The position numbers and the translations under genes were made by a program. DNA of 64,000 nt from Clostridia bacterium (GTDB lineage Bacteria; Bacillota; Clostridia; Christensenellales; CAG-138), in NCBI GenBank assembly GCA_017523925.1, contig JAFWVQ010000047.1, positions 7,482 to 71,481 on the forward strand, written 5' to 3'. A model generated the notes under the pieces. That model ran no database searches, was not told the DNA's origin, and saw only the letters and a program-made list of their open reading frames with translations. This document shows, piece by piece, positions 7,577 to 63,235 of this stretch (position 1 is its first letter; each line of letters begins with the position of its first letter).

Positions 7577-7650
7577 TAGTGAATAGTGAATAGTGAACAG
7601 TAATAGTTGCGGTTCGCTTCCCTTGTGGGGGGCGTTTCATTGCATTTTGA
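7577..7650 (+). repeat. TAGTGAA-heptamer array element, copy A (degenerate hairpin)
   Basis: 'tagtgaatagtgaatagtgaacagtaatagttgcggttcgc...'. Confidence 0.6.
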
Positions 7651-21213: not shown

Positions 21214-21233
21214 TGGTGCCGATGCGGACGGCG

Positions 21234-21390
21234 AAAGGGGAAAGCAAAAGCGCAAAGGAAAAGGGCAAGGGGAAAGGGCGAAGGAAAAGGGCAAGGGAAA
21301 AGGGCAAGGGGAAAGGGCGAGGGGAAAGGGCAAAGGAAAAGGGCAAGGGGAAAGGGCGAGGGAAGGGAAAGGGAAAAGGAGAGGGGCTGC
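21234..21390. repeat. ~155-bp homopurine/homopyrimidine tract of degenerate ~26-nt repeats (GGAAAAGGGCAAGGGGAAAGGGCGAG)n
   Basis: The top strand is almost pure G/A with more than 15 GGG/GGGG runs. It lies ~120 bp upstream of the spoIIE start. Confidence 0.8.
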
Positions 21391-25534: not shown

Positions 25535-25612
25535 TTAAGTGAATAGTGAATATTGAATAGTGAATAGTTGCGGTTGAAACGCCGCGGGCGTTTCTTATGA
25601 TTATTTCCACCT
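25531..25612 (+). repeat. TAGTGAA-heptamer array element, copy B
   Basis: 'TAAttaagtgaatagtgaatattgaatagtgaatagttgcggttgaaacgccgcgggcgtttc', with the stop codon embedded. Confidence 0.7.
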
Positions 25613-25637
25613 CATTTGCCGCTCGCCGCAGATAAAA

Positions 25638-25675
25638 AAACGCCCTTCCGATCATTTCGAAAGGGCGTTCGTTTT
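25638..25675. terminator. hairpin terminator
   Basis: 'aaaaaacgcccttccgatcatttcgaaagggcgttcgttttt'. Confidence 0.6.
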
Positions 25676-26314
25676 TCATGCGAGGAACTCGTTTCCAAGC
25701 TCCTTTAAGCGATACTCATAGGGCGAAACGGGCATATCCTTCTTCAAAATATTCTCGATTATCCACCGCTTCACCCGAAGCAGGAACAGCTCGAAGCGAA
25801 GCCGGAGCTTATGCTTGCCGTAATAGATGCGATCGTATTTAAGGCAGTTGAATTCGTAGTCCTGAACGGTCTGCCCCGAATGCGGATCGATGAACGCGAT
25901 GCCGAGCTTCGCCGCATCCTCGGTCGTGAGATCGTGCCTCATCTGCAAAAGGCCGGGCAGTGCCTCGGGTTCACAGCCGTCCGTGCCGTTCATATGCGCC
26001 GAAACCTTGCGCCAGCGGTAGAGCTCCTTGCGATATTCGAGCGGATGCTTCTTGAAAAACTCCTCGTCGCCCATCAGTGCGCGGCGCTTGCGAAGAAATA
26101 TCGGGCGGTAGACCGACACGCCGAAGATGGGGATTATGGAGAATGCGAGCAGCGCGAGTATGATGAAAACGGGCGTGCTCATCGCGTGGGAATAGGTGAA
26201 AACTATGACCAGCGGCAGTCCGCCGAAGCATACGAAAAGTACCTTTATAACCGTTGTAAACAGCAGTGAGATAAAGCTGAAATGATTGACGGTCTGCTTT
26301 TTGAATAAGCGCAT
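25676..26314 (-). CDS. 2-TM membrane protein, unrecognised family (paralog 1)
   Basis: Start at M21, with 'aaaggagg' upstream. Two N-terminal TM helices ('HAMSTP') and a cytoplasmic domain with motifs 'LMGDEEFFKKHPLEYRKELYRWRKVSA', 'LPGLLQMRHDLT', 'KYDRIYYGKH' and 'DMPVSPYEYRLKEL'. Confidence 0.6.
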   Translation of the reverse strand: MRLFKKQTVNHFSFISLLFTTVIKVLFVCFGGLPLVIVFTYSHAMSTPVFIILALLAFSIIPIFGVSVYRPIFLRKRRALMGDEEFFKKHPLEYRKELYRWRKVSAHMNGTDGCEPEALPGLLQMRHDLTTEDAAKLGIAFIDPHSGQTVQDYEFNCLKYDRIYYGKHKLRLRFELFLLRVKRWIIENILKKDMPVSPYEYRLKELGNEFLA

Positions 26315-26503
26315 ACGGCCTCCTTTCTCCGCCGACGAAACGCCGCTTCGTTCGGTCGGCATGACCTCGTTCATATAAATTATAGCACGCGCTCAAACCG
26401 TTTTTCAAGAGAAAACATGGCGGCTTTATGTATTTGGTGTGAGCAATAACGGAGAACGCGATAAAAGAGCGCCCGAGGGTATCGGGCGCACGAAACGATT
26501 TAA

Positions 26504-38543: not shown

Positions 38544-39323
38544 ATGAAGTTTATCCCGCTTTTCAGCGGTTCATCGGGCAATTCGTCCTATCTTGAGGTC
38601 GGCTCTACCCGCCTGCTTATCGATGCGGGCATGACGGGCAAGGCGATCACCGAGGCGCTTTGCCGCATTTCGGTTTCCCCCGAAAAGCTGAACGGCATCC
38701 TCGTTACGCATGACCACGTTGACCACACGCGCGGCGTTGGCATCCTTTCAAGGAAGTACGGCCTGCCCGTTTACGCAAACGCCGGAACGCTCAAGGCGAT
38801 GGAGCCGATCACGAAGGAGCTTCCGTATTCAAACACCCGCCTGTTTCAAACGGACGAGGATTTCTATATCGGCAGCATAAATATTTTCCCTTTCAAAACG
38901 CCGCACGACGCTGCCGAATCGGTGGGTTTCGTTTTCACCGCGGGCGAAAAAAAGCTTACCTATATGACCGATATAGGCTGTATGCGCGAGAATATGCTCA
39001 ATAAAGCGGCGGGCTCGAATCTTGTTTTCATCGAGGCGAACCACGATATCGAGATGCTCAAGCGCGGCCCCTACCCCTACCCGCTCAAGCAGCGCATACT
39101 CTCCGATCACGGGCATCTTTCCAATGAAAACTGCGGCAAAGCGCTCGTTAAGCTCTATGAAACCGGCGTGCGCTTCGCGGTGCTCGGCCATCTTTCCAAG
39201 GAAAACAACACCGAGTATGAGGCGTACAACACGGTTTCGCGCGTGCTCGAGGAGGCGAATATCCCCGATATGCGCATAGTGGTCGCCAAGCGCGGCGAGA
39301 TAACGGGAATTTTCGAGCTGTAA
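38544..39323 (+). CDS. yycJ: MBL-fold metallo-hydrolase YycJ/WalJ-like
   Basis: 'HDHVDH' metallo-beta-lactamase motif. Conserved position upstream of rlmH. Confidence 0.75.
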   Translation: MKFIPLFSGSSGNSSYLEVGSTRLLIDAGMTGKAITEALCRISVSPEKLNGILVTHDHVDHTRGVGILSRKYGLPVYANAGTLKAMEPITKELPYSNTRLFQTDEDFYIGSINIFPFKTPHDAAESVGFVFTAGEKKLTYMTDIGCMRENMLNKAAGSNLVFIEANHDIEMLKRGPYPYPLKQRILSDHGHLSNENCGKALVKLYETGVRFAVLGHLSKENNTEYEAYNTVSRVLEEANIPDMRIVVAKRGEITGIFEL

Positions 39324-39344
39324 TACCGTTTTTTGAGGTGCAAT

Positions 39345-39824
39345 ATGAAGCTTCGCGTGATCTGCGTTGGCAGGCTCAAGGAAAAATTCTATACGGATGC
39401 TGTGAACGAGTTCAAAAAGCGGCTTTCGCGCTTTGCGGAGGTCGAGATAGTGGAGCTTGCGGATGAAAAAGCGCCCGAAAAGCTCAGCGATGCGGAGCTT
39501 GAGCAGATCAAGCTTGCCGAGGGGCGGCGCATACTTGCAAAGCTTGCGGACGGTGAAACGGCCGTGGCGCTCGATATTCGGGGCGTTCAGCTCTCCTCGA
39601 CCGAGCTTGCCGAGAAGCTGAAAAACCTGATGCTCGAGGGCAAAAGCCGCATCGCGTTCATCATCGGCGGCTCGAACGGGCTTTCAAGCGAGGTGCTCGC
39701 CCGCGCCGATTTCAAGCTGAGCTTTTCGAAGATGACCTTCTCGCATCAGATATTCAGAATAATGCTGATGGAGCAGCTCTATCGCGCGTTCAAGATAATA
39801 AATAACGAGCCGTACCACAAATAG
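39345..39824 (+). CDS. rlmH: 23S rRNA (pseudouridine1915-N3)-methyltransferase RlmH
   Basis: SPOUT fold, 'IAFIIGGSNGLS...FSKMTFSHQIFRIMLMEQLYRAF'. Confidence 0.85.
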   Translation: MKLRVICVGRLKEKFYTDAVNEFKKRLSRFAEVEIVELADEKAPEKLSDAELEQIKLAEGRRILAKLADGETAVALDIRGVQLSSTELAEKLKNLMLEGKSRIAFIIGGSNGLSSEVLARADFKLSFSKMTFSHQIFRIMLMEQLYRAFKIINNEPYHK

Positions 39825-39893
39825 ATAGTGAAGAGTGAATAATGAATAGTGAATAGTTGAGGTGGAAATTCCGCAGGAATTTCATCATTTTTA
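39822..39893 (+). repeat. TAGTGAA-heptamer array element, copy C
   Basis: 'TAGatagtgaagagtgaataatgaatagtgaatagttgaggtggaaattccgcaggaatttcatcattttta'. Confidence 0.8.
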
Positions 39894-40399
39894 TGAGTAT
39901 GAGTGAAAAAGAGGCTGCGGCGCTTTCGGCGCTCGATCAAATGAATATTCCTTATATAAGGCTTGAGCATCCGCCCTGCGCGAGCATGGAGGCATGCGCC
40001 GCCATCGTTTCGCCCTCGGGCGCGAAGCATTGCAAGAATCTTTTCTTGACCAATAAGCGCGGCACGGAGTTCTATCTTCTGCTGCTTCACCGCGAAAAGC
40101 GCTTTGTAACGAGCGAAGTCAGCAAGCTTCTCGGCTCAACACGGCTGAGCTTTGCAGCAGACGATAAGCTTTCGGAGCTCTTGGGCCTCTCCCCCGGCTC
40201 TATCTCGGTTACCGGGCTTATCAACGATACGGAGAGAAGGGTTCACCCCGTTATCGACGCCGATATCCTTAAAGAGGAAAAGATGCTGATCCATCCGAGC
40301 GTGAACACCGCCTCGCTCGAGGTGAAAACCGCCGACGTGAAAAGCTTTGCTGAAGGGCTTGGGTATGAGGTGCGGGTGATATTCGGGGATAGTGAATAG
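39893..40399 (+). CDS. YbaK/ProX-family aminoacyl-tRNA deacylase
   Basis: 'MSMSEKEAAALSALDQMNIPYIRLEHPP...'. The first 12 aa of the track ORF (MRWKFRRNFIIF) are the translated repeat element. Confidence 0.65.
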   Translation: MSMSEKEAAALSALDQMNIPYIRLEHPPCASMEACAAIVSPSGAKHCKNLFLTNKRGTEFYLLLLHREKRFVTSEVSKLLGSTRLSFAADDKLSELLGLSPGSISVTGLINDTERRVHPVIDADILKEEKMLIHPSVNTASLEVKTADVKSFAEGLGYEVRVIFGDSE

Positions 40400-40450
40400 T
40401 GAATAGTGAATAGTTGAGGTGGAAATTCCAAGGGAATTTCTTTGATTTAA
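40388..40450 (+). repeat. TAGTGAA-heptamer array element, copy D
   Basis: 'tagtgaatagtgaatagtgaatagttgaggtggaaattccaagggaatttctttgattt'. Confidence 0.8.
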
Positions 40451-40598
40451 GCCTTTTTCGCCGTAAACCTTCCTTTGCGGCATTTTTCGTGGTATAATTA
40501 TGTTTTAACGAATGCCGTTTCGCGGCGGGTGCATTTGCATTTGCCAGCGAGGTGCGCATATACTGAACAAAAAGCGTCCTAAGGCGCGGGAGAAGATC

Positions 40599-41675
40599 AT
40601 GGAGAATAAAAAGATAATCGTTATGACAGGCGGCGGCAGCGCGGGGCACGTTACGCCCAATATCGCGCTGATACCCGAGCTTCAAAAGGCGGGCTATGAG
40701 ATACACTATATCGGCTCGAAGGACGGCATTGAAAAGGAGCTTATCGAGGCTCAGAAGGGCGTTTATTATCATCCGATATCCTCCGGCAAATTCCGCCGCT
40801 ATTTTTCGCTGAAGAATTTCACCGATCCCTTCCGTGTTAATCACGGCGTTTCGCAGGCAAAAAGGCTTATAAAGGAGCTTGCGCCCGAGGTCGTTTTCTC
40901 CAAGGGCGGCTTTGTGAGCGTTCCGGTCGTTATTGCGGCGAAGGGCAAATGCCCCGTGGTCTGCCACGAGAGCGACTACACGCCCGGCCTTGCGAACAAG
41001 ATCGCCGCGAGGTATGCCGACACTATCTGCGTCACCTTCGAGGACACACTGAAGCATGTGGACAGGTCCCGCGCAGTGCATACGGGTACGCCGATACGCA
41101 GCGAGCTTTTCTCGGGAAACAGGCAGCGCGGCCTCGATTTCCTCGGTTTTTCGGGGGATAAGCCCGTTATCTTGGTCATGGGCGGCAGCCTCGGCGCGGA
41201 GGCGGTCAACAATGCGGTCCGCCGCGCACTGCCGGAGCTTACGAAGCGATTCGACGTTATCCACCTCTGCGGCAAGGGCAAGCTGGACGAGAGCATCGGC
41301 GAAAACCCCTGCTACCGCCAGTTTGAGTACATCAGTTCGGAGCTGCCCGATCTTATGGCCTGTACCGATCTTGCGATAAGCCGCAGCGGCGCGAACTCGG
41401 TTTTTGAATTCCTCGCGCTTCGGATACCCGCCATCTTCATCCCGCTCACGCTCGAGCAGAGCCGCGGCGATCAGATTCTGAACGCCGAATACTGCGAAAA
41501 GAAGGGCTATTCGGCGGTGCTGCCGCAGGATACCGTTACGAGCGAGAGCCTGTTGAACAAGGTGAACGAGGTCTACGACAACAGGCAAAAGTTTATCTCC
41601 GCGATGGAGCAGGATAAAACGCTGGACGGCACCGCGAGGGTGCTTGAGGTGATTTTGAAGGCAGCTAAGAAGTGA
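40599..41675 (+). CDS. murG: UDP-N-acetylglucosamine--N-acetylmuramyl-(pentapeptide) pyrophosphoryl-undecaprenol GlcNAc transferase MurG
   Basis: Start at M30 (MENKKIIVMTGGGSAGHVTPNIAL), with SD 'gggaga'. GT28 N- and C-terminal domains. Confidence 0.85.
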   Translation: MENKKIIVMTGGGSAGHVTPNIALIPELQKAGYEIHYIGSKDGIEKELIEAQKGVYYHPISSGKFRRYFSLKNFTDPFRVNHGVSQAKRLIKELAPEVVFSKGGFVSVPVVIAAKGKCPVVCHESDYTPGLANKIAARYADTICVTFEDTLKHVDRSRAVHTGTPIRSELFSGNRQRGLDFLGFSGDKPVILVMGGSLGAEAVNNAVRRALPELTKRFDVIHLCGKGKLDESIGENPCYRQFEYISSELPDLMACTDLAISRSGANSVFEFLALRIPAIFIPLTLEQSRGDQILNAEYCEKKGYSAVLPQDTVTSESLLNKVNEVYDNRQKFISAMEQDKTLDGTARVLEVILKAAKK

Positions 41676-41735
41676 ATAGTGAATAATGAATAGTGAATAG
41701 TGAATAGTTGCGGTTGAAATTCCTTCGGAATTTCT
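41673..41735 (+). repeat. TAGTGAA-heptamer array element, copy E
   Basis: 'TGAatagtgaataatgaatagtgaatagtgaatagttgcggttgaaattccttcggaatttc'. Confidence 0.8.
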
Positions 41736-41824
41736 TACATATTCAATATTGGGTTTCAGTTGAAATATTGTTTTGCCGCCGGATCGCGTTATCGAGCGGC
41801 GGGCTTAGAGGGCAGTGAGGCGGA

Positions 41825-43009
41825 ATGATCGCTTTTCTTGCGAAAACCTTTATCAAGAACAGCGAAAACTATGGGGATGCGCGGGTTCGCGGCGGCTACG
41901 GCGTGCTGATCGGCGCATTCTTCATAGTGCTAAATGCGCTGCTCTTCGCGGGCAAGCTCGCCGCGGGGCTTATCTCGCGCTCGGTTTCTATCACGGCGGA
42001 TGCTTTCAACAATCTTTCCGATGCGGGAAGCTCGATCATAACGCTTCTCGGCTTCAAGCTCGCCTCGCAAAAGCCCGACACGGAGCATCCCTTCGGGCAC
42101 GGCAGGTTTGAATACATCGCGGGGCTGCTCGTTTCCGCCGCGATAATCCTGATGGGCTTCGAGCTATTGAAGACCTCGATCGGGCGAATAATACGCCCTG
42201 AGGAAACGGAGCTTTCGCTTTTGAGCGGCATTATACTCGGCGCTTCGGTCGCCGTTAAGCTCTACATGGCGTTTTCAAGCGGCCGTTACGCCAAGCGCCT
42301 GCGCTCTCCCGCGCTCAAGGCGACGATGCGCGATTCACTTTCGGACAGCGCGGCGACGGCGCTGGTGCTTATCGCCGCCATCGCTTCAAAATTTACCGGC
42401 GCAAGGCTCGACGGCTGGGTGGGCGCACTGGTCTCCATCTTCGTGCTGTATTCGGGGATCACGTCCGGAAAGGAAACGATCGCGCCGCTGCTCGGTCAGA
42501 TGCCCGAGCCGGAATTTGTGGAGCGTGTGAAGGAGCTCGTGCTCTCCACGGAGCGCATAACGGGGCTGCACGATCTCATCATCCACGACTACGGCCCGGG
42601 GCGGCGCATGATATCGCTGCACGCCGAGGTGCCGGTCGAAAAGGGCGACGATTTTTTCAAAATCCACGATATCATCGACGAAACCGAGCGCAGGATCGCC
42701 GCGGAGCTTGGGTGCGAAGCAACGATACACCTCGATCCCGTTGCGCTTGGGGACGAGCGAACGGAAAAGCTCAAGGCGCGCACGCTCGAAGCGCTGCACG
42801 CGATAGACCCCGCGCTCACGCTGCACGATTTTCGCATAGTTCCGAGTGAAACGCGCACAACGCTGATCTTCGACGTGGTGATCCCCTACGATTGCAGGCT
42901 GAGCGAGGGCGAGGTCGTATCGGCGATATGCGAAGCCGTTTCGCGCTTTGAGGGCGAAAGCGGCGGAAGCTTTCGCGCGGTGGTTACGGCGGATAGACCG
43001 TTTGCGTGA
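41825..43009 (+). CDS. cation diffusion facilitator (CDF) family metal efflux transporter
   Basis: 6 TM with 'HAFNNLSDAGSSIITLLG' and a C-terminal cytoplasmic domain. Confidence 0.8.
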   Translation: MIAFLAKTFIKNSENYGDARVRGGYGVLIGAFFIVLNALLFAGKLAAGLISRSVSITADAFNNLSDAGSSIITLLGFKLASQKPDTEHPFGHGRFEYIAGLLVSAAIILMGFELLKTSIGRIIRPEETELSLLSGIILGASVAVKLYMAFSSGRYAKRLRSPALKATMRDSLSDSAATALVLIAAIASKFTGARLDGWVGALVSIFVLYSGITSGKETIAPLLGQMPEPEFVERVKELVLSTERITGLHDLIIHDYGPGRRMISLHAEVPVEKGDDFFKIHDIIDETERRIAAELGCEATIHLDPVALGDERTEKLKARTLEALHAIDPALTLHDFRIVPSETRTTLIFDVVIPYDCRLSEGEVVSAICEAVSRFEGESGGSFRAVVTADRPFA

Positions 43010-44889: not shown

Positions 44890-46923
44890 TTACGGATTCT
44901 CAACGGGGAAGGTTGAGATAACGCCCATGGCATAGCGCTGGATGAGCAGGCTGTCGACCATGGTGACTTCGCCGTCGCCGTCCACGTCCGCCTGTGCAAG
45001 CTGCTCCTCATCGAGCTCCGCAAGACCCATGATATAGCGCAGCGCGAGCAGCGCGTCCGCAGTGGTGACTTCGCCGTCGCCGTCCGCGTCGCCGATGATG
45101 GCGGTTTCGGGCGCCTCGACGTAGAAGTCGATGGTGTAGAGCCAGTAGTAACCCATGCTCGAGCTGTAGCCGCCGTTTTCTACAAAAGCGGTTTCGCCGT
45201 TGATAGTAACGGTCACATTCTCAGCAAATACGCAGCCCGCGTTGGGAAGGATCTCGAAGTACTGGTAGTAGGCGTAGCCCGCGTTGTCAAAAGCATCGGA
45301 GGGCACCATCATGTCGCCATCGTCGATCGCTTCATCCCACCAGTTCCAGTCCGTGTAGTCGATGGTATAATTCGCGCCCTCGGGAACGGTGACGTTGTAG
45401 AACGGGTTCTCGCCCCATACGGGCTCAACGAAGCCCTCGATCTCGATGGTGTCGATAACGATGGGATCCGGAGCGGGCTCCTCATTGGTTCCGAACACCT
45501 CAACGCAGTCGAGGTTGAGTCGGAACATATCGGAGCAGTTATAGTGGCGGAACGCAACGCTGATCGTTTCGCCGGCGTACTCGGAAAGATCGAGCTCGTA
45601 ATAGGTGTAGGCGGGCTCGGCAACGAGCTCCTCGGATATCATGGTGTAATCTTCAACATTGGTGCCGGTGCCGACGTAGATCGCAAAATGCTCATCGGAA
45701 TAGCCCGGATCCTGCGCACCGAGATACATGCCGAGAGCGGCATCATACAGCGGAACCTCGAACGCGGGGGAGATCACCCAGTTGTCGGGATTGAGCGCAG
45801 CGCCCTGATACGAAGCGGAGGTCATGTTGCCAACGCCCTCAAACGCCATAATTGCGGTATCCTGGTTGACGCCGTAGGCAAGCCAGTACCAGTTCATGCC
45901 GTCGCCGTCGCTGTCTACATACTGCCAGCCCTCGCCTTCGGGATTGGTCTCGAAGTAGAAGCCCACGACGGCCTCCTTGGCGCAGACGTAGCGAATGCCA
46001 ATGTATGCATAGGCCTCGTTGGTTGTGGTGCACTCGGGATCGGGCTCCTTGGCGCCTCCGTTCGCGGTAAGCTCGGCGTTGGCATCGAAGACCTTGCCAT
46101 CGGGTGCTTCAAGCTCCGCAGCGAGCAGGTAGGTCTCGCCCGCCACAAGCGCCTCGTCGGAGGAAAGAACGCTGCCGTCTTCAAGAGCTACGCTGACCCG
46201 GCTGATAACATACTCCGCGTCATCGGGAGTAAAGAGCGCATCGGCAAGCTCCGCGGGGGTCATGTTTTCGATGAGCCTTAATGGGAAGCCGCTAACATCC
46301 GCCTCGTAGATTACGTTGGGATCCGGGGGAAGTGCAACGGTGATATCGTCGATGTAGAACTTCCACATATCGGAAACGTCGAAGTGACGGATCGCGAATT
46401 TAACGGTCGCACCCGCGAAAGCGGAGATGTCGTAGATCTTCTCGTTCCAGTCAGTGCCGGATGCGGACTGACCGACGGCGATCTCGTTTGCATTGTCCTC
46501 GGCGTCGATAACGTATACGCCGTAGTTCTCGGGATAGGTGCCGGAATAGTTCTTAACAAACATGGTGACCTCCGCGCCGGTCGCGGGAACGGCGAACGCG
46601 GGAGAGATCGCCCAGTTATCGGGATGGTACGCGCCTGCGCCGTAGGACTCACTCATTATCGAGTAAGTGCCGCTGTGGGCGTAAGTGGCGCCGCTGTTCC
46701 AAATCCAGTTATGGCCGTCGCCGTCCTCATCCACGAACTGCCAGCCGTTCGCGGTGGGGTCTGCTTCAAAATCCCATGCTGCGATGGATTTCTCGGTCGC
46801 GGGAGAGGATTTCTCGGTTGCGGGAGAGGAGAGCCTGGTCGCTTCGCCCGCGAATGCCGCCGCGGGGATGAGGCTCAAAACCATCATGGCCGCAACGAAG
46901 ATGCTGATAAGCTTCTTAGTCAT
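44890..46923 (-). CDS. secreted protein with two cleaved-adhesin-like (choice-of-anchor-J-like) lectin domains and C-terminal type-I dockerin (paralog 1)
   Basis: True start MTKKLISIF (M88 of the track ORF), with GGAGG upstream. Signal peptide, 'EKSSPATEKSSPATEKS' repeats, 'DGDGHNW...DNWAISP...FAIRHFD' domains, and dockerin 'DADGDGEVTTADALLALRYIMG...DVDGDGEVTMVDSLLIQRYAMG'. Confidence 0.75.
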   Translation of the reverse strand: MTKKLISIFVAAMMVLSLIPAAAFAGEATRLSSPATEKSSPATEKSIAAWDFEADPTANGWQFVDEDGDGHNWIWNSGATYAHSGTYSIMSESYGAGAYHPDNWAISPAFAVPATGAEVTMFVKNYSGTYPENYGVYVIDAEDNANEIAVGQSASGTDWNEKIYDISAFAGATVKFAIRHFDVSDMWKFYIDDITVALPPDPNVIYEADVSGFPLRLIENMTPAELADALFTPDDAEYVISRVSVALEDGSVLSSDEALVAGETYLLAAELEAPDGKVFDANAELTANGGAKEPDPECTTTNEAYAYIGIRYVCAKEAVVGFYFETNPEGEGWQYVDSDGDGMNWYWLAYGVNQDTAIMAFEGVGNMTSASYQGAALNPDNWVISPAFEVPLYDAALGMYLGAQDPGYSDEHFAIYVGTGTNVEDYTMISEELVAEPAYTYYELDLSEYAGETISVAFRHYNCSDMFRLNLDCVEVFGTNEEPAPDPIVIDTIEIEGFVEPVWGENPFYNVTVPEGANYTIDYTDWNWWDEAIDDGDMMVPSDAFDNAGYAYYQYFEILPNAGCVFAENVTVTINGETAFVENGGYSSSMGYYWLYTIDFYVEAPETAIIGDADGDGEVTTADALLALRYIMGLAELDEEQLAQADVDGDGEVTMVDSLLIQRYAMGVISTFPVENP

Positions 46924-47154
46924 GTTTTTTCCTCCTAAAACGAATTTCATTCGGATCGGCGCCACTCGGAGCATATAGGATGCCCGATCGTGCGCCGACC
47001 TCGGGTATATTATATCGCGCTTTGCGCCCGGTTTCAATGCGTTATCCAAAACTTGATCCTTTTTTTGCAAAAAACCCGTGTTTTTCCCCGGTGCGGCATA
47101 AAAACCAAAGCAAGCCTGAAGAAGCACAGAGAACAAAAACGCAGAATAAATAAA

Positions 47155-47217
47155 GAAGAAATTCCATCGGAATTTCCACCTCAACTATTCACTATTCATT
47201 ATTCACTATTCACTAAT
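47155..47217 (-). repeat. TAGTGAA-heptamer array element, copy F (inverted)
   Basis: 'gaaattccatcggaatttccacctcaactattcactattcattattcactattcacta'. Confidence 0.8.
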
Positions 47218-47275
47218 AACGCCCGCCTCCCGATCTCTCGGGCGGCGGGCAAACGAACTGTTGAGTTAAAATGGA

Positions 47276-49576
47276 TCAGTTCCCGCTTTCTGCCGGGAAG
47301 TTTGTGATAACGCCCATAGCATAGCGCTGGATGAGCAGGGAGTCGACCATGGTGACTTCGCCGTCGCCGTCCACGTCCGCCTGCGCGAGCTGCGCTTCAT
47401 CGAGCTCCGCAAGACCCATCACGTACCTAAGCGCCATCAGCGCGTCCGCAGTGTCCACATCGCCGTCCATGTCCACGTCGCCGATGAGCTCCGCTTCGGG
47501 CTCGGTCACGAAGAAGTCAACGGTGTTGAGCCAGCAGTAGCGGCTGTACTCCATCCAGCCCTTGCTGTCCACGAGACCTGCGTCGCCGTTGATGGTGATA
47601 ACGGTGTTATCCGAGAAAACGAAGCCCTCGTCGGGAACGATCTCAACGTACATATAGTAGGCCTTTTCCTCGCTGTCGAACACGTCGCCGCCGTCAAGAA
47701 CGCCGTCGTCATCCATCGTCCACCACTGCCACTCGGCGGTGCGGACGGAGTAATTCGCGCCCTCGGGAACGGTCAGCTCAACGGTGGCCGCCTCGCCCCA
47801 AGCGGGCTCGACGAAGCCCTCGAGCTCGATGCTGTCGATAACAACGGGCTCGTCAGAGGGGTCGCCCTCGCTGCCCCAAACCTCGAACTGATCCACGCAA
47901 AGGCGCATCTGATCGTAGCAGTTGAAGTGGCGGATCGCGATATAAACGGTCTCGTTCGCATAGTCCGAAAGGTCGGCGCTGTACTGAACGTAGCTCGAGG
48001 TGGCCACGGTCTCGGGGAGGATCTCGCTCATGTCATCGAGCTCGGCGCTCGTGCCGACGTAAAGCGCGAAATGCTCCTCGGGATAGCTCAGGGAGCTGCC
48101 CTTTGCATAGAAGGTCACGGAAAGATCGGTGTCAAGCAGCTCGATCGCGGGAGAGATCGCCCAGTTATCGGGATTGCGCGCAATGCCGTTCATATAGGAC
48201 GCGGAGAGGATCGCGCCATAGCCCTCGTAGGCATAGTAGGAGGAATCGTTCACCCAGAACCAGGTCAGGCCGTCGCCGTCGCTGTCCACGAACTGCCAGC
48301 CCTCCTGCTCGGGGTCGGTCTCGAAATAGTAGCCAACGATCTTATGATCGTCCTCCACCGGGGGCTCGGTCGGGTCCACAGGGGGCTCGGTCGGCTCCAC
48401 AGGAGGCTCGGTCGGGTCCACGGGAGCGGAAGCGGTACTGCCCCAAACCTCGAACTGATCCACGCAGAGCGCTTCCTCGCCGGGGGTGGTGTTGAAGTGG
48501 CGGATCGCGATGTAAACGGTCTCATTCGCAAAATCCGAAAGATCGGCGGTGTACTGAACATAGCTGCCGGTGGTCACGGTTTCGGGAAGGATCTCGGTCA
48601 TCTCGGCGGTATCGTCAGAGGTGCCGGCATACACCGCGAAATGCTCGCTGCAATAATCCACAAGATAGCCCTTCGCATAGAAGGTCACGGAAAGCTCGTT
48701 GTCGGGCAGCTCCACGGCGGGAGAGATAGCCCAGTTATCGGGATTGAGATTTCCCGTGGGGTAGGAGTAGGAATAGGAAGCGATTATGCCGGTGCCCTCA
48801 TAGGCAACGCCGAAGGTGTTCGACTTCCACTGCCAGGTCCTGCCGTCGCCATCCTGATCGGCAAACTGCCAGCCCTCGGCCACAGGATCGCTGCCCTCCT
48901 CGAAATAGGCGCCGTAGATAAGCTCGGGGCCTGCGGGGGGCTCGGTGGGGTCCACAGGGGGCTCGGAGGCTTCGTCCGCAAGGAACGATACGTCGTCGAT
49001 ATAAACGCGGAACTGATTGGAGCAGTTGTAATGACAGAACGCCGCCTTAACGGTGCGGCCGGCAAACTCCGAAAGATCGACGGTGCGCTCCTCAAACACC
49101 CTCATGGAATCGGGGGAGGTGAGGTCGTCGGTCACGGCGATGGGCTCCTCGGAATCATCCGCAAAAACGTAGATGCGATAGGTCTCAGGATAGTTGCCGC
49201 TGTAGCTCGCGATGCGGTAGCTCAGCGTCGCTTGCCCTTCGGGAAGCTCCACGGCGGGGGTCACGGCCCAGTTGTCGGGCGTGAGTGCGCCGGGGCCGCT
49301 GAAATATGAGAAGGAGCGCAGCGCATGGGTGCCGCTTGCAGCGATGGGCGCGCTGGCGGCGGTGTCCGCAGCGCAGCTCCAGGTGTAGCCGTCGCCGTCC
49401 TCATCGGTGAAGGTCCAGCCCTCGTCCTCGGGATCGGTCTCAAAGTCCCAGAACGCAATGGTCTCCGCGTCCCTTGCGGGAACGGCCGCGCCCGCGCTCG
49501 CTGCCATAGTCGCTGCGGGAACGATCGCAAGGATCATCGCCGCTGCAACAAGGAAACTGAGAAGCTTCTTGGTCAT
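47276..49576 (-). CDS. secreted protein with four cleaved-adhesin-like lectin domains, (PTEPPVD)n linkers, C-terminal dockerin (paralog 2)
   Basis: 'MTKKLLSFLVAAAMILAIVPAA' signal peptide, repeated 'DGDG..W...DNWA(V/I)(T/S)P...RHFN' modules, and C-terminal dockerin 'DVDMDGDVDTADALMALRYVMG...DVDGDGEVTMVDSLLIQRYAMG'. Confidence 0.75.
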   Translation of the reverse strand: MTKKLLSFLVAAAMILAIVPAATMAASAGAAVPARDAETIAFWDFETDPEDEGWTFTDEDGDGYTWSCAADTAASAPIAASGTHALRSFSYFSGPGALTPDNWAVTPAVELPEGQATLSYRIASYSGNYPETYRIYVFADDSEEPIAVTDDLTSPDSMRVFEERTVDLSEFAGRTVKAAFCHYNCSNQFRVYIDDVSFLADEASEPPVDPTEPPAGPELIYGAYFEEGSDPVAEGWQFADQDGDGRTWQWKSNTFGVAYEGTGIIASYSYSYPTGNLNPDNWAISPAVELPDNELSVTFYAKGYLVDYCSEHFAVYAGTSDDTAEMTEILPETVTTGSYVQYTADLSDFANETVYIAIRHFNTTPGEEALCVDQFEVWGSTASAPVDPTEPPVEPTEPPVDPTEPPVEDDHKIVGYYFETDPEQEGWQFVDSDGDGLTWFWVNDSSYYAYEGYGAILSASYMNGIARNPDNWAISPAIELLDTDLSVTFYAKGSSLSYPEEHFALYVGTSAELDDMSEILPETVATSSYVQYSADLSDYANETVYIAIRHFNCYDQMRLCVDQFEVWGSEGDPSDEPVVIDSIELEGFVEPAWGEAATVELTVPEGANYSVRTAEWQWWTMDDDGVLDGGDVFDSEEKAYYMYVEIVPDEGFVFSDNTVITINGDAGLVDSKGWMEYSRYCWLNTVDFFVTEPEAELIGDVDMDGDVDTADALMALRYVMGLAELDEAQLAQADVDGDGEVTMVDSLLIQRYAMGVITNFPAESGN

Positions 49577-49865
49577 GAATAGTTCCTCCTGATGTAATAC
49601 TGTGCCGCATTAGCATGCACTAACCGCAATTATATCAGAATAGCATATTAGGTTCAAGTGCGCGGATAGCATTTTTATTTATATATGAAGTAATATAGTG
49701 CCTGCGTTCGGGCGGCCTCCCCCGAAGGCGTCAGCACGATCGCGGCGCAGATAGCTGCGGCATGGATAACATGCTCGAAAACGATCCCTTCCGCTTCCTG
49801 CCGCCAAGGCTGCCCGCTCCAACTGCGGCATGGATTGCTGCGGCATAAATAATACAAAAATAAAG

Positions 49866-49926
49866 AAGAAATTCCCCCGGAATTTCCACCTCAACTATTC
49901 ACTATTCATTATTCACTATTCACTAA
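49866..49926 (-). repeat. TAGTGAA-heptamer array element, copy G (inverted)
   Basis: 'gaaattcccccggaatttccacctcaactattcactattcattattcactattcacta'. Confidence 0.8.
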
Positions 49927-49986
49927 AACACATCCCGCCGACCTGCGTGAGCAGGTCGGCGGGAAAAGCAAGCCATTGTTAATTCA

Positions 49987-52254
49987 TCATGCTTCCTCCG
50001 CGGGGAAGGACTCGACAAGGCCAAGCGCATGGCGGAGGATGAGGAGGGGATCCGCAACGGTGACATTGCCGTCGCCGGTGACCTCGGCCTGTGCAAGCTG
50101 ATCTTCGTTCAGCTCGATCAGACCCATCACGTACCTAAGCGCCATCAGCGCGTCTGCGGTGTCCACGTCGCCGTCCATATCCACGTCGCCAAGCACGCCG
50201 GTCGCGGGAAGCTCGCCCTCGGCGATCTCCACGTTATCAACTGCGAAGAAGTCGCCGTTCGGGTTGACGCTGCTGTCCTTATGATACTTCCAGGTGAGGG
50301 TGTGCTCGCCTGCGGTCATGGGCTCGGAGGTGAAGAGCTCCCAGTCATTCTGCTGAGCGCCCCAGTAGCCGACGCGCTGGCCGTCGATGGAGAATTCGCA
50401 GTAATCCCAGTAGGTGCTCGTGCCTTCGCCGAACGCCCTGTACTCGAACTTCACAACGTCGCCCGCGTTCGCGGTGATGGTGGTGGTGAGGATGGAGTCG
50501 CTGGAGCTTACGCCGGCGTTGCCGCTCTGAGCGTAGATCCTGTCGCCTTCCTCAACAACGAACCAGGGGTATGCGCCTTCTGATTCGAAGTGGAGCTCGC
50601 CGCCCTCTACGTTGAGCGCCTCGTCAAGGGAGGGCATGGGAGCGGGCTCAGTCACGTAGAAGCCGATGGTGTAGAAGGTTGCGCTGTCGGTCTCGATATA
50701 GATGAAGTTGCCGTCCGCAAGGGTCTGCTCACCGTTGATGGTGACTACCGCATTCTCGGCGAACTCATAGCCCTCGTTGGGAGTGACTACGAAGAGCATG
50801 GTGTATTCGTAATCCTCGTGATCGAAGGTATCGGTCTCGGTAAGCTCGCCGAAGTCCTCCTCGGACCACCAGTTCCAGATCGCGCTCTCAAGGGTGTAGT
50901 TCGCATCATTGGGAACGGTCACGCCGAAGAAGGGATTCTCGCCCCATGCGGGCTCAACGAAGCCCTCGATCGCGATGGCGTCGATGACCTGGGGATCGGT
51001 GGGAGGCTCGGTGGGATCCACGGGGGGCTGATCGCCGCCCTCGCCGAAGAACTCGACCTGGTCGAGCCAGATCTCGTACATATCGTAACAATGATCGTAG
51101 AACGCAACGTAGACGGTCTGTCCCGCATAGTCGGAAAGGTCGAACTCATAATGAGTCCAGTTGTCCTCGGCGCCGGTGCTCGGCGAGATGTTGCTCTGAA
51201 GCAGCGTCATCTCGGCGGTCTCGGCGGAGGTGCCGATGTAAACGTCGAAGGACTCGGGATAATCGGGGTTCGCCTGGGTAGAATAGAAGCTCAGGCTTGC
51301 CGCGCCCTCGGGAAGCTCAACGGCGGGAGTGATCGCCCAGTTATCGGCCTGGTATGCGCCAACGTAATCCACGAAGGAGTAGGACATGATGAAGCCGCTG
51401 CCCTCGTGCGCGTACGGAGTGTAGTCATAGCCGCTGGGGTTATTGTCGGAATGCACCCAGTTTGTGTCGGCCGTGCCGATGAGGGTCCAGTCCGCAAGCT
51501 CATCCTCGCTCTCGAAGTAGTAGCCCGCGATCAGGCTGCTCTCTGCGGGAGGCTCGGTGGGATCCACGGGAGGCTCGGTGGGATCCACGGGAGGCTCGGT
51601 GGGGTCTACGGGAGGCTCGGTGGGATCCACGGGAGGATTCTCCTCGGGATCGGCAACGATCGCGATATCGTCCACATAGAACATATACTGATCCACGCAG
51701 TTGTAGTGACGCACAGCGACCTGCACGCTCTGACCTGCGTACTCGGAGAGATCGGCGGTGAATTCAGCGAATTCCCTCGAGGTTGCGGGCGACTGCATAT
51801 CATCGCCGAGCGCAACGGGCTCCTCGGCGCCGTCCACAAACGCATAGAGAGCGAAGGTCTCGGGATAACTGCCCATGTAGCTTGCGGCCATCACGCTGAG
51901 AACGATGGTCTCGGCTTCGGGAAGCTCTACAGCGGGAGATACCGCCCAGTTGTCGGGGGTCAGCGCAGTGCCGAAGTAGGAGCGGGACCTGATGGAGTAT
52001 TCACCGCTGGTTGCGATGGGTACGTCGGCATAGGTCTCGTTGACCCACTGCCAGTTGTTGTTGTCGCCGTCTTCATCACGGAATTCCCAGCCGTTCTCGA
52101 GGGGATCGACTTCAAGATCCCAGAGAGCGACCTGAGTTTGCTCCTTGACTGCGGGGGCCGCCGCTCTTTCTGCGTTTGCAGCAAGAGCCGAAGCGGGAAT
52201 GAGGCTGAGCAGCATCATCGCCGCAACGACGATAGCGATAAGCTTCTTGGTCAT
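49987..52254 (-). CDS. secreted protein with three cleaved-adhesin-like lectin domains, an extra beta-sandwich domain and C-terminal dockerin (paralog 3)
   Basis: True start MTKKLIAIVV (M25), with GGAGG upstream. Same architecture as paralogs 1 and 2. Dockerin 'DVDMDGDVDTADALMALRYVMG...EVTGDGNVTVADPLLILRHALG'. Confidence 0.75.
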   Translation of the reverse strand: MTKKLIAIVVAAMMLLSLIPASALAANAERAAAPAVKEQTQVALWDLEVDPLENGWEFRDEDGDNNNWQWVNETYADVPIATSGEYSIRSRSYFGTALTPDNWAVSPAVELPEAETIVLSVMAASYMGSYPETFALYAFVDGAEEPVALGDDMQSPATSREFAEFTADLSEYAGQSVQVAVRHYNCVDQYMFYVDDIAIVADPEENPPVDPTEPPVDPTEPPVDPTEPPVDPTEPPAESSLIAGYYFESEDELADWTLIGTADTNWVHSDNNPSGYDYTPYAHEGSGFIMSYSFVDYVGAYQADNWAITPAVELPEGAASLSFYSTQANPDYPESFDVYIGTSAETAEMTLLQSNISPSTGAEDNWTHYEFDLSDYAGQTVYVAFYDHCYDMYEIWLDQVEFFGEGGDQPPVDPTEPPTDPQVIDAIAIEGFVEPAWGENPFFGVTVPNDANYTLESAIWNWWSEEDFGELTETDTFDHEDYEYTMLFVVTPNEGYEFAENAVVTINGEQTLADGNFIYIETDSATFYTIGFYVTEPAPMPSLDEALNVEGGELHFESEGAYPWFVVEEGDRIYAQSGNAGVSSSDSILTTTITANAGDVVKFEYRAFGEGTSTYWDYCEFSIDGQRVGYWGAQQNDWELFTSEPMTAGEHTLTWKYHKDSSVNPNGDFFAVDNVEIAEGELPATGVLGDVDMDGDVDTADALMALRYVMGLIELNEDQLAQAEVTGDGNVTVADPLLILRHALGLVESFPAEEA

Positions 52255-52666
52255 GTTTCTTCCTCCAAAAATAGTTTTTCTTGCGGCGCGGCGCAAGTTT
52301 GAGAATTCGAAACACTGCGCATGCACTCCGCCGCATGTATATTATACCATACCGAGCCGGTTCTTTCAATGCGTTGAAGGGGGAATGGATGAAATTTTGA
52401 AAAAAACGGGTTCGCGCCGGGAAACGGCGGCCGGGGAACGGGGCAGAGGAACGGGGAGGGGGAATGCCGCGCGGAAGGCGAGCGAAGCAAGAGCGGAAGT
52501 GCGGCGCGGGCGCAGCAAGCCGGCGCGGCGCAGGCGAGGTATCCGTTAAAAACCGATCAAAATCAACAAGCGCCCCGAAGGGCGTGTCCGCATAAGGAGA
52601 TATAGGTTTTCAGCAGAATATAACACTTTTCCAATACAAACGCTCCGGGAATACCGTTCGCATTGA

Positions 52667-57513: not shown

Positions 57514-57765
57514 GGCGCGGGAACAAAGCGCATGAAAGCGTGAAAGCGCGATATGCGCGGATAAACACAAGGAGCGGAGGCGAAAAAGGGCTTCGCGCCG
57601 CTCCTTTGCCGCGGCTTTGAGCCAAAAGCATCGAAAAATAAATAAAGCTTGGATCAAATTCCATGAATCAAACTTCGCGCTTTGCGAAACAATAAGCCTG
57701 GCGGTTCAAAGCCGCTTATTCTGCCGTTTTATCGATCCATGAAACGGCTTGTTTTCGGAGGCAAT

Positions 57766-58357: not shown

Positions 58358-58363
58358 TTCTAT

Positions 58364-58425
58364 AAGTGAATAGTGAATAATGAATAATTGAGGTTGAAAT
58401 TCCTGTGGAATTTCTTGATTTTGCT
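58364..58425 (+). repeat. TAGTGAA-heptamer array element, copy H
   Basis: 'taagtgaatagtgaataatgaataattgaggttgaaattcctgtggaatttcttgatttt'. Confidence 0.8.
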
Positions 58426-58513
58426 TTTGCCGCCAACGAACTTGGTTTTTTATCATCCTCGGGGTACGCTTTGCGGCGGTAAAATATTATTCCGAAGCAT
58501 AAAATAAAACAAA

Positions 58514-58588
58514 TACCGCCGAAGCGGTATTTGCACCTTAACTATTCGCTATTCATTATTCATTATTCAATATTCATTGAAGCGATCC
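58514..58588 (-). repeat. TAGTGAA-like heptamer array (copy I, inverted) fused to a different hairpin terminator
   Basis: The minus strand reads 'aatgaatattgaataatgaataatgaatagcgaatagttaaggtgcaaataccgcttcggcggtatttgttttatttt'. Confidence 0.65.
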
Positions 58589-62076: not shown

Positions 62077-62146
62077 TTATTAAATCATTATTTGAAACGC
62101 CCTTAGCGTTTCATCCTAAATTTCTTCATTAGCAAAGCGGCTTCAT

Positions 62147-62173
62147 TAGTAAAAAATGCCGCCCGAAGGCGGC
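62147..62173 (-). terminator. intercistronic hairpin (attenuator) between SCIFF peptide and maturase
   Basis: The minus strand reads 'gccgccttcgggcggcattttttact'. Confidence 0.55.
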
Positions 62174-62495: not shown

Positions 62496-63167
62496 ATGGT
62501 CAACCTCGGCAACGATTGGGACGCCATCCTTGCGGATGAATTCGAAAAGGAATACTATAAGGAGCTTCGCCGCTTCCTTGTGAACGAATACCGCACGCGC
62601 ACGATCTATCCGAATATGAACGACATATTCAATGCGCTCAAGTTCACCTCGTTTGAGGATACGAAGGCGGTCATCCTCGGGCAGGACCCCTACCACGGCG
62701 AACATCAGGCGCACGGGCTCTGCTTCTCGGTGCTGCGCGGCATCGAGCCGCCGCCGTCCCTCAAGAATATCTATAAGGAGCTTGCTTCGGACGTGGGCTT
62801 CGTTCCCCCGATGCACGGCGAGCTGACGCATTGGGCGGAGCAGGGCGTGCTGATGCTGAACGCGGTTTTGACCGTTCGCGCACATCAGGCGAATTCCCAC
62901 AAGGGCTGCGGCTGGGAAAGGTTCACCGACCGCGTTATCGCCGAGCTGAACAATAAAAAGACGCCCGTCGTTTTCCTGCTTTGGGGCGCGAACGCAAGGC
63001 AGAAGGCGAGGGTCATAACGAACCCGATCCACGTTAAGCTCGAGACCGTTCACCCGAGCCCGCTCTCGGCGTACAACGGCTTTTTCGGCTGCAAGCATTT
63101 TTCAAAATGCAACGAGATACTTGAAAAAAGCGGGCAATCGCCGATAGATTGGCAACTACCCGATTAA
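62496..63167 (+). CDS. ung: uracil-DNA glycosylase (family 1)
   Basis: 'GQDPYHG' and 'HPSPLSA' motifs. Confidence 0.9.
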   Translation: MVNLGNDWDAILADEFEKEYYKELRRFLVNEYRTRTIYPNMNDIFNALKFTSFEDTKAVILGQDPYHGEHQAHGLCFSVLRGIEPPPSLKNIYKELASDVGFVPPMHGELTHWAEQGVLMLNAVLTVRAHQANSHKGCGWERFTDRVIAELNNKKTPVVFLLWGANARQKARVITNPIHVKLETVHPSPLSAYNGFFGCKHFSKCNEILEKSGQSPIDWQLPD

Positions 63168-63235
63168 ATAGTGAATAGAGAATAATGAATAGTGAATAGT
63201 TGAGGATGAAATTCCTGCGGAATTTCTTCGATCAT
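63166..63235 (+). repeat. TAGTGAA-heptamer array element, copy J
   Basis: 'TAAatagtgaatagagaataatgaatagtgaatagttgaggatgaaattcctgcggaatttcttcg'. Confidence 0.8.

Follow-up and report, generated by a model that had tools for sequence, protein, structure and literature searches.

A heptamer array joined in register to a small hairpin recurs at gene boundaries of a Clostridia bacterium and its relatives

Dispersed intergenic repeats such as REP and BOX are classic yet poorly understood, and there is almost nothing on them in the uncultured Oscillospirales, a dominant group of rumen and gut. The repetitive extragenic palindromes of Proteobacteria (REP, and the bacterial interspersed mosaic elements, BIME) are mobilised by RAYT transposases. 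BOX elements of Streptococcus pneumoniae are built of modules of 45-60 nt and have no known transposase, and the short tandemly repeated repetitive sequences (STRR) of Cyanobacteria are intergenic heptamer repeats. Here we analyse a stretch of 64,000 nucleotides (the window) from a Clostridia bacterium, positions 7,482 to 71,481 of contig JAFWVQ010000047.1 (assembly GCA_017523925.1), in which 11 copies of a repeat consist of a tandem heptamer array, a 7-nt linker, a hairpin and a T-rich tail. The repeat is present at about a fifth of the gene boundaries of this genome.

Like REP and BIME, the repeat numbers hundreds of short extragenic units in a genome, each with a hairpin and a short conserved motif beside it, and the units stand alone or form inverted pairs; its density is 11 copies in the 64 kb of the window and 159 matches of a covariance model in 690 kb of related loci. 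In both families units lie mostly past gene ends, where they would be transcribed together with the gene before them, relatives differ in which copies they carry, and effects on termination and on mRNA 3'-end stability are proposed. The repeat differs in having a short, perfect palindrome of 8 bp with a free loop and no GTAG motif beside it, whereas REP palindromes are imperfect and 20-40 nt long. It differs further in the heptamer array fused in phase to the hairpin and in its Firmicutes hosts, and an approximate IS200 TnpA query found no RAYT gene in the DNA sampled, whole genomes being outside the search. Like BOX, the repeat is a modular, dispersed intergenic element of a Gram-positive host, with a variable number of internal tandem modules between fixed ones and a predicted RNA fold; it differs in its 7-nt units as against 45-60 nt, shows no sequence similarity, and BOX lacks the phasing of lattice to hairpin.

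Heptamer arrays of another kind are the TAACTGA direct repeats in intergenic regions of marine Beggiatoaceae, Cyanobacteria and Bacteroidetes (PMC4679880). Arrays of this type, STRR included, resemble ours in comprising 2-6 units of one 7-nt sequence with two stop triplets (TAA and TGA there, TAG or TAA and TGA here), in forming more than 100 intergenic sets per genome that abut coding regions, in copy number that varies between relatives, in a patchy phylogeny and in the proposal of a nucleic-acid-binding reader. The unit is a different one, however, and TAACTGA arrays stand alone, mostly directly upstream of start codons in forward orientation, whereas the array described here is always joined to a hairpin via a fixed 7-nt linker and in this clade mostly follows stop codons. 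The ribbon-helix-helix (RHH) protein omega/ParB of pSM19035 binds contiguous WATCACW heptads, one dimer per heptad, and needs at least four contiguous repeats for full activity (PMC9499535). Our arrays likewise are contiguous non-palindromic 7-bp repeats, and ATTCACT, the reverse complement of the window-type unit AGTGAAT, matches WATCACW at 6 of 7 positions. Omega sites comprise 7-10 heptads at three plasmid promoters (PMC9499535), whereas here there are hundreds of chromosomal sites of 3-6 units with a fused hairpin and an orientation linked to transcription. None of REP/BIME, BOX and the heptamer arrays joins a microsatellite lattice in register to a hairpin.

An earlier, sequence-only reading of the window had reported at least ten copies, all of which are present. 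Tandem Repeats Finder (TRF) placed arrays of period 7 and 3.7-5.4 copies at 7577, 25538, 39825, 40389, 41671, 47184(-), 49894(-), 58362, 58550(-) and 63167. A covariance model built from 32 diverse copies and run on the window without filters recovered these ten (26-81 bits), matched 62085-62135(-) within an eleventh, divergent copy at 62085-62150(-), and returned nothing else. The double heptamer TGAATARTGAATAR occurs 30 times against 0.05 expected, and the hairpin pattern GGTGGAAATTCC-N3-GGAATTTC 12 times against 0.00 expected; these 12 matches stem from seven copies because the stem is palindromic and some are read on both strands. The chance expectation for copies of the repeat in 64 kb is about 0. 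The window has 56.8% G+C, not the approximately 62% assumed in the earlier reading, and the copies have 28-40%. Rfam at the gathering threshold matched only a ribosomal protein L10 leader in the window and nothing in the repeat, its E-value mode up to E=10 gave 0 matches over 39300-41900, and a search for tRNA and tmRNA genes found none. As a string in either orientation the repeat sequence matched no searchable paper, and the family is apparently undescribed so far.

Each copy reads as a single 7-nt lattice, (TGAATAR)3-6 - TTGAGGT - TGAAA..., the last unit of which starts a hairpin with a variable loop, 8 bp and perfect in the typical copy, followed by the T-rich tail. The 32 copies used for the model align without gaps, with a linker of exactly 7 nt and the hairpin base in phase with the array. 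Position profiles from 128 distinct copies give n units of T-G-A-A-T-A-R (mostly 3-5), one TTG(A/T)GG(T/A) and one (T/G)GAAA(T/C)(T/C), the 5' arm of the hairpin, so that the consensus ahead of the stem is ...TGAATAGTTGAGGTTGAAA-stem. Some arrays hold only 2 units, and one, in locus L007 (related loci are cited by L number), has about 17 units read by eye and at least 14 by a unit-counting script. The arrays consist of 46% A, 25% G, 28% T and 1% C; being nearly free of C, they allow no strong structure and the tract is open. Position 7 of the unit is G in 62-66% of units, and UAG is thus not invariant.

That the stem is conserved and the loop variable, as the sequence-only reading had noted, is correct and extends to complete compensatory changes of the stem, namely cgcc/ggcg in the copy c25538 and ataccg/cggtat in c58550r (copies are named by array position, with r for the minus strand). 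The lower stem GAAA:TTTC is near-invariant, the upper stem and its length vary yet stay complementary, and the loops are free; stem types include ttcc, cgcc, tccc, ccc, gc, atcac, accgc, tttg, ataccg, accgacgg and others. Of the cells in an alignment of 140 distinct copies to the model, 99.1% pair, and double changes occur at all eight pairs; these pairing statistics were matched by 0 of 500 shuffles and by no slid register. The stems are weak. The typical GAAATTCC/GGAATTTC has three G-C pairs of eight, the family median for the isolated stem-loop is about -6.5 kcal/mol, and folded segments reach -7.7 to -9.1 kcal/mol in eight window copies, with stronger values only in c25538 (-11.3) and c58550r (-16.4). 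Whole-element folds gave -17.7 kcal/mol for c58550r and an extended stem for c47184r (z -4.07); folding of the window copies found no alternative antiterminator fold.

Orthologous loci, among them those reached via MurG homologues of 100, 90, 88 and 81% identity, indicate which parts of the element are constrained. Between orthologous copies the length changes by 7 or 14 nt, that is, by whole heptamers. In three orthologous sets, a core of 38 nt (two proximal units, the linker and both arms) is identical at 35-37 of 38 positions (92-97%); the loops of these sets have 0-2 of 3 positions in common, and identity is only about 50% over the following 69 nt, which makes that stretch unalignable. Private linker variants (TTTAGG, GAGCTGG) are common to orthologues, which argues for constraint on each copy rather than homogenisation by gene conversion. 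The alignments show purifying selection on the two proximal heptamers, linker and both stem arms while loop and flanks drift, and a dead selfish relic does not fit this conservation of the core.

Copies are also gained and lost. At the boundary of rlmH and ybaK, the window and two other samples of the same species are filled by 68 nt of element, whereas L044, L045 and L049, with flanks about 95% identical to the window, are empty, the genes standing 3 nt apart; c39825 is a recent 68-nt insertion. Target-site duplications, a mark of mobility that the sequence-only reading had proposed to look for, are absent here: the filled site reads TAG-(68 nt)-ATG and the empty one TAA-tcc-ATG. RUG13931 and RGIG1529, which are 80-90% identical to the window, have copies after M3 peptidase and DUF1905 genes that the window lacks, and the copy at the end of murG is missing in the relative of 81% identity (L047), which has no copy in 21 kb. 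The murG array is merged with the stop codon in the window and L049 and lies 12-14 nt away from it in L044 and L046. A site filled in L064 is empty in L034, a comparison complicated by about 50 extra nt; the L064 copy, at 5360, apparently sits in a 5' leader. In RUG13931 (L003 5909-6831), two direct copies flank a 750-nt minus-strand gene, and in RGIG1529 (L022 1240-1312; also L073) a single hybrid copy remains and the gene is gone, either by deletion through recombination between copies or, in the other direction, by a cassette-like gain.

The search of other genomes that the sequence-only reading had suggested places the family well beyond this assembly. An exact pattern scanned against a single genome of each species matched 41 loci in about 19 metagenome-assembled genomes (MAGs), labelled Clostridia, Eubacteriales, Oscillospiraceae and Candidatus Avispirillum and originating from rumen, caecum, bird and termite gut, and three copies recur unchanged in independent assemblies of the same species. 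A metagenome scan gave 30 loci, mostly from one JGI metagenome, together with contigs of 28-29% G+C that carry the same consensus, which thus holds across hosts of 28-59% G+C. Viral contigs gave no match, and the repeat is therefore not a phage element.

Placement was read from Pfam-checked gene identities in the window and, for the family, from our own codon-model gene calls. Ten window copies are in sense and one, c7577, is antisense. The earlier reading had put nine of ten copies immediately after a stop codon in the orientation of the upstream gene; nine are indeed co-oriented, but three of them (47184, 49894, 58362) lie about 60-68 nt downstream, behind a GC-rich terminator. Its statement that the stops of rlmH, ybaK, murG and ung belong to the array holds, each lying in or touching it, and the ParB-like gene joins them. 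In the clade of the window, 72 copies are co-oriented with the array-side gene and 25 opposed (about 26% antisense), with sense:antisense counts of 9:1 in the window (plus the eleventh copy), 32:13 in Ga0256404, 16:9 in RUG13931, 9:2 in RGIG1529 and 4:0 in the L044 species. Half of the sense copies begin -30 to +10 nt from the stop, and others cluster at 40-80 nt from it. Where copies are antisense, the array usually ends 20-40 nt from the start codon, just past its ribosome-binding site. The array side is always tight against a coding unit, at its stop or start, and the hairpin side is loose (median 60-150 nt). The hairpin-side gene is co-oriented in 66 of 97 copies, and about 29% of copies have no co-oriented downstream gene. 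A bias by replication strand was considered and dropped, since the 7(+) to 4(-) distribution of copies tracks gene orientation, not replication; GC skew, positive over most of the window, suggests that the plus strand is leading there.

Because the 7-nt unit carries TGA plus TAG or TAA, three repeats place stops in all frames, as the earlier reading had stated and as simple arithmetic confirms, and antisense arrays contain no stop codons and are open in all frames. Because the linker reads TTG AGG TGG AAA (39857, 47184(-) and others), it creates false TTG starts, the source of the spurious MRWKFR... N-termini that had already been attributed to the repeat. Mechanical calls of open reading frames (ORFs) overrun the true starts of ybaK, which database callers start at 39893 or 39899, and of gene 44890-47184(-). 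The long MurG ORF was absent from an exact-protein lookup because its true start lies 29 codons downstream, and its identity was obtained via homologue search.

It is a separate question whether the hairpin terminates transcription. Weak intrinsic terminators that depend on NusA or NusG exist, and the repeat resembles an intrinsic terminator in its stem-loop and T-rich tail past stop codons, with about 74% of copies co-oriented. The tails of all window copies are at least 50% T, several of them TTNTTT-like (TTCTTT), and a simple terminator scan flagged four of the five copies in the region scanned. Family-wide, the tail has a mean of 3.5 T per 8 nt against a background of 2.0, and 26% of the family, against 6.5% of background, have five or more T among the 8 nt that follow the stem. 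The repeat differs from an intrinsic terminator in that its hairpin is not a stable G+C-rich stem and many copies have no U-tract. Some copies stand within operons or downstream of other terminators, and a conserved upstream sequence, present throughout the family, is no feature of terminators. Nor do copies regularly mark the ends of transcription units, given c39825, the four copies behind terminators and the approximately 26% in antisense. The four behind canonical terminators are therefore not those genes' own terminator.

Several other functions were considered and set aside. A promoter inside the element is suggested in some copies by the TTGAAA linker and CATTAT-like tails (41714-41743 was flagged); this is ruled out, as the supposed spacer is the hairpin, of 15-23 nt, and about half of the copies lack the -10-like tail. 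A hypothetical antisense promoter in the reverse-complement array, TTCATT-N17-CATTAT, would fit the 17-33-nt start distance of antisense copies and agrees with the consensus at only about 7 of 12 positions. A hairpin-bridged Shine-Dalgarno sequence, GAGGTGG about 10 nt from the ybaK ATG, is geometrically possible for c39825 only, and other downstream genes carry their own ribosome-binding sites. Likenesses to a sporulation sigma-G -35 box (TGAATA), a Spo0A box and a Fur/PerR box were dropped, since the copies lack the necessary partner hexamers or spacing and their neighbouring genes are functionally unrelated.

Our preferred reading, to which we give a probability of roughly 0.45 and which is thus tentative, is that the repeat is a selected boundary repeat of the REP/BIME/BOX kind that acts as a leaky terminator or 3' stem-loop with a sequence-specific partner. 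The unit would be transcribed with the upstream gene in about three of four copies in the clade, giving an open, stop-rich spacer, a weak stem-loop and a U-rich tail. The stem-loop may serve as a leaky, probably factor-assisted terminator or as a hairpin that protects the 3' end at the coding boundary, and the all-frame stops may be a by-product that lets the array abut or replace a stop codon. That the heptamer and linker sequences stay conserved in hosts of 28-59% G+C exceeds the needs of the hairpin, points to a sequence-specific partner and implies a dedicated, still putative binding partner for heptamers and linker. With this, the core of the sequence-only reading, an abundant, oriented and modular gene-boundary repeat with a structurally conserved hairpin, is upheld, and its passing suggestion of a REP/MITE-like element or protein-binding array lies nearer the evidence than its headline of a terminator cassette, although the marks of a miniature inverted-repeat transposable element (MITE), terminal inverted repeats and target-site duplication, are both lacking. 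A number of observations count against the reading we prefer. The orientation bias of the clade (72:25) is not seen in distant MAGs (14:19), where convergent or composite pairs, array - hairpin - hairpin - array, are frequent; this resembles a mobile element or a site that works at the level of DNA. Antisense copies are as near the consensus as sense ones (median core identity 0.892 in both, a comparison biased by the fact that copies were found by similarity to the consensus). Pairs are 98.6% Watson-Crick, and G.T (5 cells) is no commoner than A.C (4 cells), so that the sense RNA strand is not marked as the selected one; at 5 versus 4 this asymmetry, tried as a discriminator between RNA and DNA, is uninformative. 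Template switching in perfect palindromes can also yield apparent compensatory changes, and an AAA/TTT loop flip between L044 and L049 fits such switching. Four of the 11 window copies (47184, 49894, 58362, 62085-62150) stand behind GC-rich terminators, where little transcription should reach them. The copy c39825 lies inside an operon and fills the whole rlmH-ybaK spacer; no promoter-like site was found between it and ybaK, which, given the adjacency of the two genes in the relative, must thus be transcribed through the copy. From copies behind terminators, in an operon and apparently in a 5' leader it follows that any termination is weak or conditional.

These points distribute themselves over four competing explanations. 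The one proposed by the sequence-only reading, a constitutive cassette selected for an all-frame translational stop and then transcription termination, could appeal to stops in three frames by construction, to the five or six window genes that end in or at the array, and to T-rich tails throughout the window with four copies flagged as terminator-like. We regard it as most unlikely and the claim as unsupported: stems are weak, a canonical U-tract occurs in 26% of the family, four window copies follow genuine terminators and another separates the coupled genes rlmH and ybaK, at least 26% of copies are antisense and equally conserved, some arrays have 2 units, and conservation of heptamer and linker would be superfluous for that role. 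A purely selfish, non-autonomous MITE/REP-like element without host function, copied to gene boundaries by a putative enzyme that reads hairpin and heptamers, for example on single-stranded DNA, is improbable, if the most credible of the competitors. It would explain conservation by the needs of mobility and recent copying, and orientation and gene-end bias as tolerated places of insertion. The clean 68-nt insertion, presence or absence that varies between close species, recombination or deletion between direct copies, convergent composites with array-plus-linker 'inverted ends' (L061, L004/L005, L032), palindromes perfect on both strands without G.U excess, equal conservation in either orientation and copies in 'safe' spots behind terminators all suit it. 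It is opposed by orthologous copies that are older than species splits and keep 92-97% of the core amid scrambled flanks, with private variants, and by one consensus across hosts of 28-59% G+C. Nor were a target-site duplication, a transposase adjoining the copies or occurrences in viral contigs seen; a single unit (array - linker - hairpin - T tail) is not bounded by terminal inverted repeats, which only composite pairs mimic, and the approximate IS200 TnpA query (tblastn, about 715 kb) matched one ordinary IS200, in L060, with unrelated ends.

The remaining two explanations turn on what would read the heptamers. The array could be a double-stranded DNA heptad site bound cooperatively by a small omega-like protein that marks or insulates boundaries, as a roadblock, nucleoid-organisation site or supercoiling site, with the hairpin as accessory terminator. 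Contiguous runs of 3-6 units (typically 4-5), the near-match to WATCACW, conservation independent of orientation, copies in barely transcribed spots behind terminators, and an array side that, unlike the hairpin side, abuts the coding unit at stop or start fit such a site; the 3:1 co-orientation with transcription and a covarying hairpin in 7-nt phase with the array are left unexplained by it. Since, moreover, the GTGA core is missing from the AT-rich variant AATGAAT that is common in other genomes, omega sites overlap promoters while our copies mostly follow stop codons, and the binding protein is hypothetical, we hold this possibility to be quite improbable. Even more doubtful is a protein-controlled attenuator, in which a single-stranded-RNA-binding protein, by analogy with HutP (UAG-N4 period) or TRAP, would read UGAA(UAR) every 7 nt and, as the lattice extends into the 5' arm (TGAAA), open or lock the weak hairpin, tuning read-through into the downstream gene at hundreds of boundaries. 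It accounts for a lattice that runs in phase through the linker into the stem base with GAAA near-invariant and the upper stem variable, for a C-free, unstructured tract, for weak and hence leaky terminators, for copies tolerated inside an operon and probably in a 5' leader, for a co-oriented hairpin-side gene in 66 of 97 copies, and for sequence-specific conservation, which calls for a reader. It does not account for position 7 (G in 62-66% of units, so that the specificity is not HutP-like), for the approximately 29% of copies without a co-oriented downstream gene, or for equally conserved antisense copies without a strand-specific wobble signal; no antiterminator fold was found and the protein is hypothetical. 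The only RNA-binding Pfam matches among window genes were KH/R3H in Jag/KhpB (2041-3249) and the RNase P protein, the two largest genes not being scanned and several small ORFs having no match.

Beyond the boundary-repeat reading, we consider it a bold and rather improbable extension, ranking behind the selfish element and ahead of the omega-like site, that the lattice is a read-out code for a periodic nucleic-acid-binding protein, one subunit per 7 nt (a HutP-like ring or an omega-like RHH filament), whose occupancy would decide hairpin formation, as the lattice extends in register into the 5' arm. If so, these organisms would have, at hundreds of gene ends, a tunable system of boundaries or attenuation that spans the genome and was installed by a copy-and-paste repeat. 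If the repeat tunes termination or stability at a fifth of gene boundaries, it would be a major layer of gene-expression architecture in these organisms. The family is informative in its strict 7-nt register, its conservation across hosts of 28-59% G+C and the clear purifying selection on orthologues, and on these grounds a specific molecular partner is almost certain. Copies mark gene boundaries, and the repeat causes bogus starts and mis-called gene ends, promotes deletions between copies and breaks assemblies; its annotation would improve gene calls in MAGs.

Among the individual copies, c39825 (39822..39892, +, 78.6 bits) is the one singled out in the earlier reading. The rlmH stop TAG (39822-39824) is followed by the array (39825-39857), the linker TTGAGGT, the hairpin GAAATTCC-gca-GGAATTTC (39865-39883), the tail ATCATTTTT and the ybaK ATG at 39893, so that 39822-39893 reads TAG ATAGTGAAGAGTGAATAATGAATAGTGAATAG TTGAGGT GGAAATTCC gca GGAATTTC ATCATTTTT ATG. 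Next follows c40389 (40389..40449, +, 79.3 bits), with the ybaK stop TAG (40397-40399) inside its second heptamer, a hairpin at 40422-40440 and orthologous copies in L044 and L049; 3' of it come a second hairpin-plus-T run (40460-40481) and a TGgTATAAT promoter-like site ahead of murG. The murG stop TGA (41673-41675) in turn lies inside the first heptamer of c41671 (41671..41743, +, 78.9 bits; 5.4 units, hairpin 41716-41734), which is orthologous in L044, L046 and L049 and absent from L047 and L048. The ung stop TAA (63165-63167) abuts the array of c63167 (63165..63235, +, 74.1 bits; hairpin 63208-63226). Three nucleotides past the stop of the ParB-like gene (25532-25534) starts c25538 (25536..25603, +, 74.6 bits), whose hairpin of the cgcc type is GAAACGCC-gcg-GGCGTTTC (25576-25594). 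Facing it on the minus strand is a linker-like AAATGAGGTGGAAAT (25603-25617) on the side of the convergent gene 25676-26374(-), whose separate terminator spans 25639-25669.

The minus-strand copy c47184r (47149..47215, 80.9 bits; hairpin 47158-47176) lies 61 nt past the stop of the dockerin/Cleaved_Adhesin gene 47276-49576(-), with the GC-rich terminator 47221-47250 between, and past it is a promoter-like TTGAAA-17-TATAAT at 47037-47009. Its counterpart c49894r (49859..49925, -, 79.7 bits; hairpin 49868-49886) lies 62 nt past the stop of gene 49987-52326(-), beyond the GC-rich terminator 49933-49964, and has orthologues at L012 4380-4436, L018 4093-4149 and L070 10698-10754. Past each of these two copies stands a near-consensus promoter-like site for the gene that follows. 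The region 44890-52326(-) comprises three tandem paralogues of about 765-780 aa, with dockerin plus Cleaved_Adhesin and internal 21-nt coding repeats, and the paralogue junctions 47185-47275 and 49577-49986 show the same order of GC-rich terminator, repeat copy and near-consensus promoter-like site. A convergent pair 77 nt apart is formed by c58362 (58362..58423, +, 76.1 bits; hairpin 58396-58414), 68 nt past gene 57682-58296(+) with the terminator 58330-58353 between, and c58550r (58499..58578, -, 54.2 bits), which starts 10 nt past the stop of gene 58589-59167(-). The latter has an AT-rich variant array (AATGAAT), a linker TTAAGGT and, ahead of a T-run, the long compensated hairpin CAAATACCG-cttc-CGGTATTTG (58510-58533). 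The degenerate c7577 (7577..7648, +, 26.1 bits; hairpin CGCTTCCC-ttgt-GGGGGGCG, 7615-7634) is antisense between the desulfoferrodoxin gene 7671-8051(-) and the AhpC gene 7105-7569(-), with its array end 7 nt from the start of the AhpC ORF.

The eleventh copy, at 62085..62150 on the minus strand, is a variant form (23.4 bits, E 2e-4; hairpin 62094-62112) in which AATGAAG units are broken by ccgctttgct and followed by TTTAGGA-TGAAACGC-taag-GGCGTTTC. It lies between the gene of a SCIFF six-cysteine peptide, 62186-62338(-), and that of a radical-SAM maturase, 60703-62076(-), and is separated from the former by a GC hairpin plus T-run at 62158-62173. The SCIFF gene (Pfam PF13165, E 4e-23), which falls below the 80-aa ORF list, adjoins the radical-SAM/SPASM maturase, and the order SCIFF gene, hairpin, variant copy, maturase is a typical precursor/enzyme attenuation layout.

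Other repeats were seen beside copies in the related loci. A second repeat type adjoins element copies at L044 6450-6570 and L062 4080-4180 and 7590-7670, with related sequences in L015, L028 and L056; its tandem units, about 18-19 nt long, each combine a GC hairpin, short and variable, with ATTTCAY (RTGAAAT on the other strand). There are also interrupted arrays, AATGAAG - short hairpin - AATGAAG. Both look like relatives on the same lattice and may show how the family evolved. Just 3' of copies in two unrelated MAGs (L007 7650-7700, L037 about 2230-2290) we found a motif ...GGGAGCTGTCAGCGAAGCTGACTGAGGGA... (CCCTCAGTCAGC...GCTGACAGCTCCC), probably a different intergenic repeat family of gut Firmicutes.

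Elsewhere in the window, the L10 leader that Rfam matched (RF00557, 59.6 bits) lies at 15795-15945(-), upstream of rplJ (15243-15845) and rplL (14808-15197). A purine-rich tandem repeat at 21233-21379, of period 13/26/39 with the unit approximately GAAAGGGCGAAGGAAAAGGGCAAAGGAAAAGGGCAAGGG and 3.8 copies of 39 nt, occupies the spacer between a gene of 1588 aa and a SpoIIE-domain gene. At 665-5220(-) lies an origin-proximal cluster, mnmE - jag/khpB - yidC - yidD - rnpA, with no dnaA adjoining, in which the jag gene contains a 9-nt coding repeat, TCGCGGTTG, present 17.6 times at 2870-3027.

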